The position numbers and the translations under genes are program-made. From a candidate division Zixibacteria bacterium RBG-1 (GTDB lineage Bacteria; Zixibacteria; MSB-5A5; DSPP01; RBG-1): a stretch of DNA of 64,000 nucleotides. The notes beneath the pieces are model-generated. The model was not told where the DNA came from, did not search any database, and worked only from the letters and a program-made list of their open reading frames with translations. The stretch is taken from contig AUYT01000001.1 of NCBI GenBank assembly GCA_000447245.1, positions 804,106 through 868,105 on the forward strand, in the 5' to 3' direction. Each line of letters begins with the position of its first letter. The stretch's first letter is position 1. This document shows, piece after piece, positions 8,851 to 52,284 of this stretch.

Positions 8851-9069
8851 GGTATTATTTTAAGAGTTCCGTCAGGAGCTACTCCTGACGGCTATAACTG
8901 ACCTCACCCTACCCTCTCCTACAGGAGAGGGAGCAAAAATCCCTCCCATTGTAGGGGTTCACCCTGAAGGGAGGGGTCAGGATCACGAAGACACGAAAGC
9001 AACGAAAACAGTGGGTAGCCCAGCGGCTTCTGCCACTGGGTAAATGTGCGATAAATCGCACCGCTACAA
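8851..9069. repeat. composite intergenic palindromic repeat array (CCCTCTCC..GGAGAGGG hairpins plus GTGCGATAAATCGCACCGCTAC unit)
   Basis: Stacked hairpin units (CCGTCAGGAGCTACTCCTGACGG; ACCCTCTCCTACAGGAGAGGG; TCCCTCCCATTGTAGGGG) whose relatives recur at 27346, 32470, 36922, 37367, 41290, 44200, 46238, 48576, 50091. Confidence 0.6.
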
Positions 9070-27345: not shown

Positions 27346-27433
27346 TCCCTCTCCTTTAAGGAGAGGGTTAGGGAGAGGTCAGTAGTAAAATATAAAAACT
27401 GACCCCTCCTTTATCCTCCCCTCTAGGGGAGGA
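27346..27433. repeat. palindromic repeat unit (CCCTCTCC..GGAGAGGG family)
   Basis: CCCTCTCCTTTAAGGAGAGGG and TCCTCCCCTCTAGGGGAGGAG hairpins between sufC and sufB. Confidence 0.55.
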
Positions 27434-34944: not shown

Positions 34945-36672
34945 TTATTCCTTCAGTCTGACATAAATCACCTGACCGTCGAAAATGGTAGCTTCGACCT
35001 GGGTTTTTAAAATCTCTTCCGGGGGTAAAGTAAAAATGTCCTTGCTCAAAACCACCATGTCCGCCAATTTTCCCTCTTCCAAAGACCCTTTCAAACTATC
35101 CTGAAATTCGGCATAAGCGGCCCCGATGGTGTAGCCCTTGAGGGCTTCCATAAGTGAAATACATTCCCTCCGGTACCAGCCCGCACCCGGCTCCGGATTT
35201 TGGGGGTCTTTTCTGGTGACCGCGGCGTATAAACCAATCAAAGGATTTAAGGGTTCCACCGGCCAGTCGGTCCCGAATGCCAGATGGGCACCATTCACTA
35301 AGAGTGATTTCCAGGCATAAGCTCCTTGGCATCTTTTCTTCCCCAGCCTATCTTCGGCCCATCTCTTGTCGGAGGTGCAATGGGTTGGCTGCATGGAGGC
35401 AACCACTCCCAGCTTTCCAAACAGGGGAATATCCTCTTCCCGCAGCACCTGGGCATGCTCAATGCGGTGCCGGGAATTTTTTCTTTTGTTGGTTAAGAGA
35501 GCTTTCTCAAAGGCCTTCAAAACCAGGTAATTTCCTTTGTCACCGATGGCATGAAAGCAGATCTGAAAACCCATTTTGTCCGCTTTGGTTATCAAAGAAC
35601 CGAGCTCCTCCTGCTTATACTGGGGAATTCCCATGGTGCTGGTGTCATCTGAATACGGTTCGAATAAATAAGCAGTGCGGGAGCCCAGAGTCCCGTCTAC
35701 GTATCCTTTGAAGGGACCCAATTTCAGCAAATTTGGTCTTTCAGTGAAGGCGGACTTCAAGCTGTCTATTTTCTCCGGAGTTTTTATCCATTCAAACGGC
35801 AGCCACTCCGAAATTCTGACGGTCAGATTCCCCTGCTCGGCCAGGGTGTTATAAATCGGCAGAACATTCAAATCAGAATTATCCTGAATGCTGGTGATGC
35901 CGTTTTCTTTGGCTTCCGCGATGGCGGTTTGGATGGCTTTCTGCATATCCGCTTCTGTGGGTGGAGGGATAAGGTTAGCCACTAAATCAGCGGCGTTTTC
36001 TTTTAAAATTCCGGTGGGATTTCCCATAGAATCCCGCACAATCTCTCCCCCTTCCGGGTCGGGAATATCCTTATCAATTTTGGCTTCCAGCAAAGCTAGA
36101 CTGTTGACCCAGGCCACGTGTCCGTCGATTCTGGTCAGATAGACCGGATGCAGCGAAGTGAGTTGGTTTAAAAACTTTTTATCAGGCCACTGGCTTTTGT
36201 TAAAAAGAGTATGGTCCCAGCCCCGGCCTACAATCCAGCTTCCTTCGGGGGTTTCCTTTATTTTTTGTTTGAGTTTGGCAGTGATTTCGGCTTTGGTTTT
36301 GCAGCCGGCCAGATTGACTCGCATAAGGGATAAACCCCCGGAGAGAAAATGCAGATGGGCATCGTTGAAACCGGGAATGACTGGCTTCCCGCGCAGGTCA
36401 ATCATCTCCGTTTTTCCCTTCTCAACATAATCCATCACCTGCACGTTGTTTCCCACAAACAGGATTCTGTTTCCCTTTACCGCGATGGCATGAGCTTGGG
36501 TGTTGTGTTCGTCCAGAGTAATTATTTTTCCATTTAACAGAACCAGGTCCGCTCGTGGTGAATCCTCGCGATGAAGCGCTTTCTGATTCTGTTTTTGAGA
36601 GAAGGTTACCCCGGCCAAAGATAGGATTGTGACAAGAAATAATAAGCCCAGGATTTTTCGGTTTGGTCTCAT
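34945..36672 (-). CDS. amidohydrolase-family metal-dependent hydrolase (Amidohydro_3-like), exported
   Basis: 575 aa; signal peptide; metal-binding motif FNDAHLHFLSGG and C-terminal HxxGD-type motifs. Confidence 0.75.
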   Translation of the reverse strand: MRPNRKILGLLFLVTILSLAGVTFSQKQNQKALHREDSPRADLVLLNGKIITLDEHNTQAHAIAVKGNRILFVGNNVQVMDYVEKGKTEMIDLRGKPVIPGFNDAHLHFLSGGLSLMRVNLAGCKTKAEITAKLKQKIKETPEGSWIVGRGWDHTLFNKSQWPDKKFLNQLTSLHPVYLTRIDGHVAWVNSLALLEAKIDKDIPDPEGGEIVRDSMGNPTGILKENAADLVANLIPPPTEADMQKAIQTAIAEAKENGITSIQDNSDLNVLPIYNTLAEQGNLTVRISEWLPFEWIKTPEKIDSLKSAFTERPNLLKLGPFKGYVDGTLGSRTAYLFEPYSDDTSTMGIPQYKQEELGSLITKADKMGFQICFHAIGDKGNYLVLKAFEKALLTNKRKNSRHRIEHAQVLREEDIPLFGKLGVVASMQPTHCTSDKRWAEDRLGKKRCQGAYAWKSLLVNGAHLAFGTDWPVEPLNPLIGLYAAVTRKDPQNPEPGAGWYRRECISLMEALKGYTIGAAYAEFQDSLKGSLEEGKLADMVVLSKDIFTLPPEEILKTQVEATIFDGQVIYVRLKE

Positions 36673-36921: not shown

Positions 36922-36968
36922 ACCCTCTTTTCCCTCTCCTCTTAGGGGAGGGTAAGGGTGGGGTAAGT
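36922..36968. repeat. palindromic repeat unit (CCCTCTCC family)
   Basis: CCCTCTTTTCCCTCTCCTCTTAGGGGAGGGTAAGGGTGGGGTAAGT. Confidence 0.5.
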
Positions 36969-36994: not shown

Positions 36995-37306
36995 ATGCCC
37001 AGAAAAATAAGCAAAGTCAGGGGGGAGCACGGCTTAAATTTTTTTATTAGCTACCAGCTGAAAAAAAGGTTACAAACCCTGGCCCAAAAATATGACACTT
37101 CTCTGGCGGAGATTGTCCGGACCCTGCTAAAAATCGGGATACCGGTTCTAGAAGGATATAAGCAAGCTCAAGAGCAGGCGGAGAAAGAGCTTGATAAATT
37201 GACCCATGTCCCTACAGGATTCAGTCGGAAAAAAATCTCTGGGTCAGGAGACCCAGAGCTGCCCCAGGGTAGGGTCAGGTCTCCTGACCTGACCAATGAA
37301 ATTTAA
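36995..37306 (+). CDS. small ribbon-helix-helix-like protein (putative DNA-binding)
   Basis: 103 aa; the segment LKKRLQTLAQKYDTSLAEIVRTLLKIGI resembles CopG/Arc RHH; the C-terminal 20 codons run through a hairpin repeat, so the true stop is uncertain. Confidence 0.35.
   Translation: MPRKISKVRGEHGLNFFISYQLKKRLQTLAQKYDTSLAEIVRTLLKIGIPVLEGYKQAQEQAEKELDKLTHVPTGFSRKKISGSGDPELPQGRVRSPDLTNEI
37241..37290. repeat. palindromic hairpin repeat (GGGTCAGGAGACCC family)
   Basis: GGGTCAGGAGACCCAGAGCTGCCCCAGGGTAGGGTCAGGTCTCCTGACC. Confidence 0.6.
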
Positions 37307-37317
37307 GCAGGGATAAA

Positions 37318-37911
37318 ATGAGAAAAATCAAATATCAGAATTGGATTTATGAGGTCATAAACGAGACCTCACCCCGGCCCTCTCCTACAGGAGAGGGAGA
37401 TTTTTCCCCTCCCCTAGTAGGGGAGGGGGATGGTTCGATAAACTCACCACAAAGGGGTGGGGTCAGTGCAGTTGACCCAGAAATTGAGAAACAGGTCAGA
37501 AAAGCTCTCGCCAGATTATCTGAAAAAGAAAAAATCTTTATCGAAGAATTTTACTATCAGGGGAGAAGCTATAAAGAAATTTCTGCGATTTTGAAAATCA
37601 ACCTCAAACAGAGCGAATATCTGCACCGCCGGGCGACATTCAAGCTGAGAAATCTTCTGGCTGGTTTTGTAGAAAGAAAATTCAAGATAAAAGTTGACCG
37701 AGTCAGCCCTGAAAAATCAGTGAAACACCGTAAATCTGTTTTTGCCTGTATCATCTGCCAGAATCCTAAGCAAAAAGAAATTGAGAAAGTTATCAGCTCC
37801 AAAAAAGATTTCCAGACCTGGGGTGTGGTTTTAAAAAAATTAAAAAACGAATTTAAGTTGCATATCAAAGCCCCTCAAATTCTTATAGGGCATATGAAGC
37901 ATAGAAGTTAA
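37318..37911 (+). CDS. sigma-70 region 4-like HTH protein with repeat-encoded N-terminal Pro/Gly-rich linker
   Basis: 197 aa; LARLSEKEKIFIEEFYYQGRSYKEISAILKINLKQSEYLHRRATFKLRNLL resembles sigma-70/ECF region 4; residues 17-45 are encoded by the palindromic repeat at 37367-37462. Confidence 0.4.
   Translation: MRKIKYQNWIYEVINETSPRPSPTGEGDFSPPLVGEGDGSINSPQRGGVSAVDPEIEKQVRKALARLSEKEKIFIEEFYYQGRSYKEISAILKINLKQSEYLHRRATFKLRNLLAGFVERKFKIKVDRVSPEKSVKHRKSVFACIICQNPKQKEIEKVISSKKDFQTWGVVLKKLKNEFKLHIKAPQILIGHMKHRS
37367..37462. repeat. palindromic repeat units (CCCTCTCC..GGAGAGGG, CCCCTCCCCTAGTAGGGGAGGGGG) lying inside ORF 37318..37911
   Basis: Same unit types as the intergenic copies; here in frame within a coding sequence. 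Confidence 0.5.
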
Positions 37912-38026
37912 AAAAGATTAGAGGCCATTTTAGTGGTAGCCGCAGACTTTAGTCTGCGCTTTAAGATTTCGCAACCTAAAGGTTGCGGCTACCAGGTTTT
38001 TTTATTAATCCTTAATCCCTGTTTTA

Positions 38027-39985
38027 TCAGGCACACCCCAGAAGAGGGGCTGTGCCGCTTTTGAAAACATAATTCACCAGATAAACAATATCTGCTAAAT
38101 TCACCGAACAATTCGCATTGGGATCTCCCAAAAACAGGGGGTTCGGTGCTGGTCCCCCTTTGAAAACAAAGTTCACCAGCCAAATAATGTCCGTCAAATT
38201 AATTCCCCCATCTGAATTGGCATCCCCGGCTAGGTAAGGAAAGGTCTTCAAACTATCCAAGGGAGACAAAATCCAATAGTTGGGGTCAAAGGTAATGGAA
38301 GTGGGATCACCGGTTACCAGGAAGAAAAAAGTCTGGTCTCTTTGGTTGTTTTGCAATGTGACGATTGTATCACCGGAGGTGGTGGAAACCTTGAATTCTA
38401 GCGGCATGGTATAAACTGAGGGGGTGGTCTGTTTCTGGCTGATGTTGAGATGAACCCTGGAGTTTCCTCCCACAGGGGTCTCAGCCCAGCTCCAGTTGTA
38501 TCTGGGAAAATTGGGGCTATAGACCCACTCATTGAAAAACCAATCCAAATCCTGTCCGGAGTAATTTTCCATTGAGGTTTGAAATTGCTGAGTATTGGCA
38601 GTGCTGTATTTATAGGTCTGTCCGTAATCCGCCATCCCGTTAAAGAACAAACTGTCGCCCAGTATGTATCTCAACATATGCAGAACCCAGGAGCCCTTGT
38701 CGTAGACCGCAGTTGAAAACCAGTAGTTGGAAGGTGGATTGTAAATCGGATAATGGACTGAGCCGTTGGGTAGCTGGTAAGAAGATTTAACGGCGTTTTC
38801 TTGCCCCGCTAACTGTGAATTTTTGGCTGATAGACCGTATTCATATTCCATCCACAAGACCTCGCAGTAGCTGGCAAACCCTTCGTTGAGCCAGATGTTG
38901 GGAAAGTCATTGCAGGTGACCATATCCCCCCACCACTGGTGGCCCAGCTCATGGGCATTCACCCATTCGTAAACAGCATTGCCGGGCATGGGAAATCCCC
39001 AGGAGGTGTTGGTCTGATGCTCCATAGCACCACCCAATTCTGCCTGCACGTTGGAGTATTTTTCACCCATAAAAGGATAAGGGACCCAGATAGAGGAGAA
39101 AAACTCAATCATCTCCGGAGTTTTTCGAAAATCCACCACTGCCGCAGCCGAATCCTCGTGATAAACCCAATAATGAACCGGCAGGGTGTCGTTGTTTACC
39201 ACCGCAAAAGAATCAATTCGGGCAAAATCACAGACCGTCAAAGAGATTAAATAAGTCACTATCGGATAATCTTCTTTCCAGTGATATGTCACTGTGGTAT
39301 CTGGATTGTTGGTAACTGAGAGAAGAGTTCCATTAGCTACCGCATAATTTCCTGCTGGAGCAGTGCAGATAATTTCTGAATAAGCTTTGTCGTTGGGAAA
39401 ATCAAAACAGGGAAACCAATAACGAGAGCCGTAAGGTTCGGTGAAGGAATAATAAATGGGAGTGCCGTAGGCATTGGCATCAAAATAAAATCCGCCACTC
39501 GGGTTTCCATGATAAAAAACTTCCACATTAAAAGAATCCCCGGGATTGTAGGGAACATCCAGGTCCACGGTCAATTTGGTGCTGGTTCTGGAAAAGGTGG
39601 TGCTGGAAAAATTGACCTTGCAGGAATCCACCGTCATACCCACAAAGTCTAAGACCAGGCTGGCCAGAAGGGAAATTTCCGACTTGGCGTGAATGGTCAC
39701 ATGCCCCCGGAATCTGTTGGTCAGGTCCGTGGGAACCAACCTGACATCTAAAATATATTTGGTAACGTCATAATCATGGGAGCTGTCGGCCGGCAGGGCT
39801 GGGGGAAAGGATTTTCCGAAGTGTAAAGATTTCCCCTCCTCCACCAGATTAGACTCCGGATCGCCTGCCGGGGAACCTGCTTGAGATTTGGGGACATAGG
39901 CAAATGCGGTAACAGTCAAGACCAGCAGGCAAATCAAAAAAATTAGACTTATAGCTTTGTTAGAGAATCTTTTTCCACCAGACAC
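38027..39985 (-). CDS. M1 family aminopeptidase (aminopeptidase N-like) with C-terminal dockerin-like module
   Basis: 652 aa; signal peptide; gluzincin motif HELGHQWWG...NEGFASY; C-terminus GDANSDGGINLTDIIWLVNFVFKGG...GDPNANCSVNLADIVYLVNYVFKSG...LLGCA. Confidence 0.8.
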   Translation of the reverse strand: MSGGKRFSNKAISLIFLICLLVLTVTAFAYVPKSQAGSPAGDPESNLVEEGKSLHFGKSFPPALPADSSHDYDVTKYILDVRLVPTDLTNRFRGHVTIHAKSEISLLASLVLDFVGMTVDSCKVNFSSTTFSRTSTKLTVDLDVPYNPGDSFNVEVFYHGNPSGGFYFDANAYGTPIYYSFTEPYGSRYWFPCFDFPNDKAYSEIICTAPAGNYAVANGTLLSVTNNPDTTVTYHWKEDYPIVTYLISLTVCDFARIDSFAVVNNDTLPVHYWVYHEDSAAAVVDFRKTPEMIEFFSSIWVPYPFMGEKYSNVQAELGGAMEHQTNTSWGFPMPGNAVYEWVNAHELGHQWWGDMVTCNDFPNIWLNEGFASYCEVLWMEYEYGLSAKNSQLAGQENAVKSSYQLPNGSVHYPIYNPPSNYWFSTAVYDKGSWVLHMLRYILGDSLFFNGMADYGQTYKYSTANTQQFQTSMENYSGQDLDWFFNEWVYSPNFPRYNWSWAETPVGGNSRVHLNISQKQTTPSVYTMPLEFKVSTTSGDTIVTLQNNQRDQTFFFLVTGDPTSITFDPNYWILSPLDSLKTFPYLAGDANSDGGINLTDIIWLVNFVFKGGPAPNPLFLGDPNANCSVNLADIVYLVNYVFKSGTAPLLGCA

Positions 39986-44199: not shown

Positions 44200-44305
44200 T
44201 GTGGAGACCAGCTCCACCCGAAAAATTAACCCCACCTTCACTCTCACCTCTAGGGGATGGATTTTTTGTCCCCTCTCCTGTAGGAGAGGATTAGGGTGAG
44301 GTTAG
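44200..44305. repeat. composite palindromic repeat array
   Basis: GTGGAGACCAGCTCCACCCG and CCCCTCTCCTGTAGGAGAGG units, ending GATTAGGGTGAGGTTAGT. Confidence 0.5.
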
Positions 44306-52213: not shown

Positions 52214-52284
52214 TGGGGGATCGTCTAACGGCAGGACGAATGGCTCTGGACCATTTAATCGGGGTTCGAATCCCTGTCCCCCAG
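52214..52284 (+). tRNA. tRNA-Gln (anticodon CTG)
   Basis: Hand-folded: acceptor TGGGGGA/TCCCCCA, D-stem GTCT/GGAC, anticodon stem AATGG/CCATT with loop CTCTGGA, T-arm CGGGG-TTCGAAT-CCCTG; TTGACA -35-like hexamer about 25 nt upstream. Confidence 0.75.

Follow-up and report, generated by a model that had tools for sequence, protein, structure and literature searches.

Rickettsia palindromic elements (RPEs) lie in frame within protein-coding genes (Ogata et al. 2000, reviewed in PMC10969869), and in-frame intragenic copies are also known for some ERIC, BOX and cyanobacterial MITEs (PMC10969869). A window of 64,000 nucleotides, meaning here the whole stretch of DNA that was analysed, from the Zixibacteria genome RBG-1 (2,119,746 bp, 41.9% GC, organism described as 'non-flagellated'; Castelle et al. 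2013, PMC3903129) contains a repeat that invites comparison with them. Like the RPEs, it is dispersed, palindromic and non-autonomous, lies in frame in a conserved gene of which orthologues without the insert exist, and would add a peptide to a tolerant segment of the protein. Unlike the RPEs, it belongs to an unrelated sequence family by description and occurs in the phylum Zixibacteria. It is also shorter and modular, with 48–100 nt compared with about 150 nt for the first-described RPEs, and it is intragenic at one of the six loci in the window, whereas RPEs are frequently intragenic.

With REP/BIME sequences and MITEs (ERIC, BOX, Correia/NEMIS and cyanobacterial elements) it shares short GC-rich hairpins, a mostly intergenic location, composite arrays and terminal inverted repeats, but in contrast to these no target-site duplication was seen for the Zixibacteria element.

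The host gene and the domains of its product

The element lies in the second of two genes on the plus strand. The first, termed the small gene (36995..37306, +), encodes 103 aa with a core at about aa 10–64 and a C-terminal tail at about aa 70–103. The second, termed the r4 gene (37318..37911, +), begins with ATG 11 nt past the stop of the small gene and encodes 197 aa, comprising an N-terminal motif, a linker, a sigma-70 region-4 helix-turn-helix (HTH) and a C-terminal CxxC...H..H domain. All elements named by the original prediction were present within 2–5 nt, the repeat, for example, being placed at 37365–37464 rather than 37367–37462. The pair is flanked by a divergent amidohydrolase gene (34945–36672, −) and a convergent M1 peptidase gene (38027–39985, −). 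Between the convergent r4 and M1 peptidase genes, an inverted repeat with 25-nt arms followed by a T-run (37934..38006, no strand assigned) is probably a bidirectional terminator common to both; a simple terminator scan missed it owing to a loop of more than 8 nt. An Rfam search gave no match at the locus of the two genes, and the sole match at gathering threshold in the window was a single tRNA gene (52214–52284). Judged by eye, the C-terminal end of the M1 peptidase appears dockerin-like (GDANSDGGINLTDIIWLVNFVF...). LVIVD/dockerin proteins were seen at orthologous loci, and at one of these (L004) an IPTL-CTERM protein and an exosortase (EpsH) are encoded nearby.

The sigma-70 region-4 HTH, which had been proposed from the sequence, was confirmed by two Pfam models. 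It is encoded at 37492..37650 (+, aa 59–111) and was matched by Sigma70_r4_2 (PF08281; residues 59–106, E 1.1e-6, 28.6 bits, cutoff 25.7) and Sigma70_r4 (PF04545; residues 63–111, 24.7 bits, cutoff 24.1). The AlphaFold model superposes on region 4 of M. tuberculosis SigL at about 1 Å over 61 columns. When genome contigs were scanned with the alignment of the r4 protein family, the matches were Firmicutes sigma factors only, which fit the region-4 patterns.

The C-terminal domain (37741..37908, +, aa 142–197) has invariant C144, C147, W168 and H192 and a near-invariant H195, arranged in the motif CxxC...W...PQxLIGHxK(Y)H with a pLDDT of about 80–88. No Pfam or NCBIfam model matched it. The cysteines and histidines may form a putative zinc site, and the domain looks like an undescribed zinc-binding domain that is apparently fused to the sigma-4 HTH. 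A profile of this domain identified 203 representatives of clusters at 50% identity at E≤1e-3, 101 of them at E≤1e-10. Nearly all of these representatives are 160–220 aa long with the domain at the C-terminal end, and a region-4 match was present in nine of ten sampled members.

By its architecture, the r4 protein is not a sigma factor. In contrast to FliA/WhiG and ECF sigma factors, it lacks regions 2 and 3 and has instead an N-terminal motif of 12–16 aa and the CxxC...H..H domain. It also differs from the RinA/ArpU-type phage late activators and from UPF0122/YlxM, as its matches fall far below the cutoffs of these families, and it differs from them in its chromosomal gene with conserved housekeeping context, its obligate small partner and its Cys2His2 C-terminal domain.

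Start codon, palindromic element and repeat family

The ORF 37318–37911 is the sole ORF in its frame. As predicted, ATG 37318 is its only conventional start: no in-frame ATG, GTG or TTG was found between the repeat and the HTH, and the first such codon thereafter is TTG codon 92, inside the HTH. Codons 1–16 (37318..37365, +) encode the conserved N-terminal motif MRKIKYQNWIYEVINE. A homologue search with the r4 protein returned 21 proteins, of which 19 full-length orthologues were aligned; MRKIKYQNWIYE is conserved in all 19, including the repeat-free orthologues of 174 aa, and residues M1, K3, K5, N8 and W9 are each at least 90% conserved. Across seven orthologous DNAs, the differences within codons 1–16 are synonymous or conservative (I/V, Y/F, Q/R). 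Among sampled distant relatives found via the C-terminal domain, the motif R-I-x-Y-Q-N-W-I-V-D/E persists at about 30% identity. A purine-rich, Shine-Dalgarno-like sequence lies upstream of ATG 37318 and of the orthologous starts. Since the N-terminal motif is conserved with and without the repeat as well as in distant relatives, a start of the r4 gene at ATG 37318, with the repeat inside the coding sequence, is supported by the sequence comparison.

The composite palindromic element is 100 nt long, lies in frame (37365..37464, +) and encodes residues 17 to 49, approximately, of the r4 protein, with SPRPSPTGEGDFSPPLVGEGDGSINSPQRGG at residues 18–48. It begins with a left arm GACCTCACCCC (37365–37375, +), continues with hairpin 1, CCCTCTCC-TACA-GGAGAGGG (37378–37397, +), hairpin 2, CCCCTCCCCTA-G-TAGGGGAGGGG (37406–37428, +), and an extra segment of 25 nt (37429–37453, +), and ends with a right arm GGGGTGGGGTC (37454–37464, +) that pairs with the left arm as terminal inverted repeat in an 11-bp outer stem. 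The predicted RNA fold is a three-way structure of −63.7 kcal/mol, compared with −43.2 ± 4.0 for shuffled sequences (z = −5.2). In a terminator scan, hairpin 1 followed by AGATTTTT, which holds a T5 tract, resembled an intrinsic terminator. As L004 and the intergenic copies lack the T-run, internal termination was dismissed as a feature of the family.

The element is open in two of the three forward frames, so an uninterrupted frame by itself says little about selection; the argument for an in-frame insertion therefore rests on the conserved flanks and on length changes that preserve the frame. From the sequence, the repeat is presumably translated as a peptide. Residues 1–58, all those that precede the HTH, include the peptides PSPTGEGDFSPPLVGEGDGSINSPQR and GGVSAVDPEIEK, and in the AF2 model the pLDDT is below 50 across aa 1–51, which fits the expectation for a disordered tether.

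Copies of the element were found elsewhere in the window. The hairpin unit CCCTCYCC-N(2-8)-GGRGAGGG occurs seven times in the 64 kb, compared with zero expected from 100 shuffles, which indicates a dispersed repeat family rather than chance. Composite copies with two hairpins and common arms (n=3) lie at about 8899–8980, from 41365 and in the r4 gene linker, and copies with a single hairpin are located at 27347, 32483 and 36932. Some 89% of the sequence is coding, yet five of the six repeat loci fall between genes, the r4 gene copy being the intragenic one. The unit was present at 12 of 13 fetched loci of the window's clade and at none of 49 other loci, and is thus a dispersed REP/MITE-type element specific to this lineage. 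The copy nearest to the pair (36932..36967, +), an intergenic hairpin (CCCTCTCCTCTTAGGGGAGGG) with a right-arm-like GGGTGGGGTAAG, lies 43 nt upstream of the small gene, and L004 (5609–5629) and L009 (2571–2591) carry a hairpin copy at the matching relative position. Direct repeats were not seen on either side of the copies read in the window. Comparison of filled and empty r4 linker sites revealed a replacement of 12–14 codons and no clean insertion, which is weak evidence given the divergence of these sites.

In addition to the seven perfect hairpins, isolated arm-like motifs (GGGTGAGGTTAG / ACCTCNCCC) at 44294, 50188, 62824 and 63448 hint at degenerate or incomplete copies of the element. 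Some genes predicted in related metagenomes run through copies of the element and carry a false extension at the N-terminus or an altered tail at the C-terminus, with HPNPLLQVREQTPSPSRGRERVG, PSFPSPFRGGEGRGK and SPPPSPTGEGVFFPPIRGEG as examples (P0013, P0039; L006 2646–2957; L008 1982–2332).

Orthologous alleles and competing explanations

An allele series was obtained from the DNA of nine orthologous loci, compared at the same codon position. Four of them (L001, L009, L023 and L024) have no element and encode 174–175 aa. L006 carries the left arm and one hairpin (175 aa), L011 both arms and one hairpin (179 aa), L008 two hairpins (188 aa) and L004 two hairpins with a different spacer (190 aa); the window carries two hairpins and the extra 25-nt segment (197 aa). 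All r4 gene lengths are divisible by three, and the repeat-bearing alleles are in frame. The repeat-free orthologues of 174 aa have an unrelated linker of 12–14 residues, and in the alignment of the wider family the linker varies from roughly 10 to about 60 residues. In a crude neighbour-joining tree, repeat-bearing and repeat-free orthologues are interleaved; either the element was thus gained or lost several times, or the short protein leaves the tree unresolved. The small protein of L006, L008 and P0039 likewise has a C-terminal tail encoded by the element, which is read there in the same frame (SPPPSPTGEG...).

With a probability of roughly 85%, these alleles are explained by a selfish palindromic element that landed in, or recombined into, an unconstrained linker of the r4 protein and is translated there as a disordered, Pro/Gly-rich spacer whose hairpin modules have come and gone in frame. 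The source would be a lineage-specific element of the REP/MITE type, with terminal inverted arms of 11–13 nt around one or two GC-rich hairpin modules, and the site of arrival would be a linker that is naturally hypervariable and disordered between the short N-terminal motif and the region-4 HTH. Transcribed and translated in frame, the element would form a spacer rich in Pro, Gly, Ser and Glu at residues 17 to 49 or so, and later gains and losses of hairpin modules, each a multiple of three bases, would have produced the alleles of 175, 179, 188, 190 and 197 aa. The element may be tolerated because the linker segment has no constraint on length or sequence. The repeat peptide is probably made and functionally neutral. 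The structure of −63.7 kcal/mol sits 47 nt after the start codon of the r4 gene, however, and together with the terminator-like hairpin 1 it could hinder expression, so the insertion may not be neutral.

The original prediction had weighed an in-frame insertion of the repeat against a non-canonical gene start. An initiation at ATT or another near-cognate codon downstream of the repeat, which would turn the repeat and the 16 codons before it into a 5' leader, is suggested by the lack of canonical in-frame starts ahead of the HTH, by the non-coding nature of all other copies of the element in the window and by an ATT codon (I56) that precedes the HTH. We consider it very unlikely, given that the 16 codons are conserved at the protein level, where replacements are conservative and some DNA changes synonymous, that the motif has outlasted the divergence of the DNA in relatives at about 30% identity, that every length variant keeps the frame and that the Shine-Dalgarno-like purines stand before ATG 37318 and the orthologous starts. 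The comparison of orthologues decides in favour of the in-frame insertion, because the 16 codons are conserved in the 19 orthologues, repeat-free alleles exist and the hairpin variants are in frame. Somewhat less improbable, but still unlikely, is a co-option of the element, either as an RNA or DNA structure that tunes r4 expression (attenuator, pause or processing site) or as a length-tunable tether. The very stable structure (z −5.2), the fit of hairpin 1 and its T5 tract to a terminator pattern and the recurrence of the element at this locus across several lineages, within the linker, at the boundary between the small and r4 genes and ahead of the small gene, might point in this direction. 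Against it stand the T-run missing from L004 and the intergenic copies, the many orthologues that function without the element and the unconstrained linker length across the family, and uncompensated stem mutations (G>A in hairpin 1 of L004, C>T in hairpin 2 of L008) argue against selection for RNA structure.

Repeats commonly cause misassembly and spurious extension of ORFs, and P0013 and P0039 have false N-terminal extensions through repeat copies; a decaying pseudogene, or an artefact of assembly or gene calling made by the repeat, has therefore to be considered. We regard this as even less probable than the downstream start, as the ORF is intact with all domain-defining residues conserved, and related in-frame alleles with conserved synteny occur in independent metagenomes. 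The exact protein of 197 aa recurs on seven contigs of independent sources, and is thus no assembly artefact. The least credible of these accounts is the one found in the databases, where the identical protein (EQB63168.1/OGC86379.1, candidate division Zixibacteria) is named 'RNA polymerase flagellar operon sigma factor FliA'. In favour of the name, the best PDB and NCBIfam matches of the HTH include FliA/WhiG region 4, which the profile of the 19 orthologues matched in the PDB at E 9e-9. Only region 4 was matched, however: Pfam gave no Sigma70_r2 match even at E≤1, the NCBIfam model FliA_WhiG scored 31 bits with a cutoff of 189.6, and TIGR02937 scored 34.3 bits with a cutoff of 42.9 and only at its C-terminal 62 positions. 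Just 58 residues precede the HTH, mostly disordered and 51 of them of low confidence in AF2. No flagellar or chemotaxis genes were found beside the pair, here or at orthologous or distant loci. With no region 2, no flagellar context and an organism reported to be non-flagellated (PMC3903129), the FliA label is untenable and was rejected as a mis-annotation.

A conserved pair with a small partner protein

The suggestion that the two genes form an unusual regulatory module was supported by their conservation as a pair. A homologue of the small protein is encoded directly downstream of the r4 gene, on the same strand, at 36 of 38 distant metagenomic loci; one of the two unpaired loci is a contig end and the other a doubtful match. 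The gene order at these 36 loci (among L019–L022 and L025–L061), r4 and then small, is inverted compared with the window's clade, where the small gene comes first, and the small protein of this clade has lost a conserved C-terminal helix MVKEYIQLFRKLRQVKSLKEI that is present elsewhere. In the wider family, the neighbours include a divergent CPBP/Rce1-like protease (25 loci), an LpxC-FabZ fusion (16) and LpxA (12), and therefore the module appears to be chromosomal and housekeeping-like, not phage-borne.

Among 19 homologues, the small protein has 30 invariant columns within positions 15–64, with the near-invariant core RGEHGLNFFISYQLKKxLQxLAQKYDTSLADIVRTLLKIGIPVLEGY. The tail is variable, with an AF2 pLDDT below 50 for aa 71–103, and its coding sequence contains palindromes (37237..37289, +). 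A hairpin with a 9-bp stem at 37237–37258 (CTCTGGGTC-AGGA-GACCCAGAG) encodes the conserved ISGSGDPE(L), and a perfect 12-nt inverted repeat (37242–37253 / 37278–37289) lies within the ORF. In L001 and L004, the left half of these tail palindromes is preserved as coding sequence. L001, L004 and further orthologues retain the palindrome at 37237–37258, which on the minus strand precedes a T-run and scores as terminator-like.

The upstream ORF had been described as a ribbon-helix-helix (RHH)-like gene that reads into a hairpin repeat. The inverted repeat inside the ORF bears out the second part; for the RHH label, in contrast, no curated cutoff or threshold was reached with RHH profiles of Pfam, NCBIfam and the PDB. 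Below threshold, Tra_M was matched at E 0.008–0.01 in 18 of 20 members of the small-protein family, and a RelB-like model at E 0.004 for the small protein of the window and 1.3e-4 for the L019 homologue. The latter also matched ORF56 at E 1.3e-4 (22 bits, cutoff 50), and the PDB entry of ORF56 (2k9i) matched the small protein at E 0.41. Comparisons of the small protein by hhalign with approximate NikR and CopG sequences were uninformative or marginal, CopG giving E 0.0055 with a probability of 6.7%. The AF2 monomer has helices at 12–32 and 37–70 and no strand, and the RHH matches of Foldseek (7etr_B, 6a6x_D, 6iya_F and 4hv0) all had E>1. The size and hydrophobic pattern of the small protein fit the strand, helix A and helix B of CopG, ORF56 and RelB-type RHH proteins, but unlike that of RHH antitoxins its partner is an HTH/zinc protein and not a toxin. 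A classification as RHH protein is thus plausible but unproven.

The top matches of the small protein in PDB and Pfam profile searches, S20 and PH0823, were judged to be spurious. One homologue (P0028), from a 1-kb contig, is labelled Thermodesulfobacteriota by its source although it is 77% identical to the Zixibacteria protein; this short contig was probably binned wrongly.

From their domain content, the r4 protein and its small partner, which is probably of the RHH type, would be a DNA-binding regulatory pair and not a sigma factor. Our best guess, based on domain content and strict gene pairing, is a two-protein regulator in which a protein with a sigma-4-type HTH and a zinc domain acts with an RHH-like dimer. 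A more far-reaching idea, which is speculative and which we think rather unlikely, is that the pair might be an undescribed transcription device of Zixibacteria-like lineages, either a sigma-4 mimic that sits on the RNA polymerase beta-flap or on −35 elements, or a two-protein unit for promoter recognition. Such a device would consist of an N-terminal peptide (R-I-x-Y-Q-N-W-I-V), a tether of free length, the sigma-4 HTH and the undescribed Cys2His2 domain, always encoded next to a highly conserved RHH-like protein of about 84 aa. If this were true, the repeat-derived linker would be a natural experiment on free tether length.

The type of event is already known from Rickettsia. What the locus offers is an orthologue-controlled case, outside Rickettsia and in an uncultivated phylum, of selfish palindromic DNA that was in all likelihood absorbed as a disordered protein linker, with alleles of none, one and two hairpins pointing to a stepwise gain and loss of hairpin modules in frame. 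For annotation, the label 'FliA' should be dropped from EQB63168.1/OGC86379.1, and peptides of the PSPTGEG or PLVGEG type in Zixibacteria proteins can serve as a flag for read-through of the repeat. The same element has also caused false extensions, N- or C-terminal, in several database entries. The host gene pair is conserved and uncharacterised, is spread over about 200 sequence clusters with its adjacency kept despite the inverted order, and is a more promising lead than the repeat. A sigma-4 HTH with a new putative zinc domain, encoded beside a small RHH-like protein, would be a target for studies of transcription in the candidate phyla of the FCB group.
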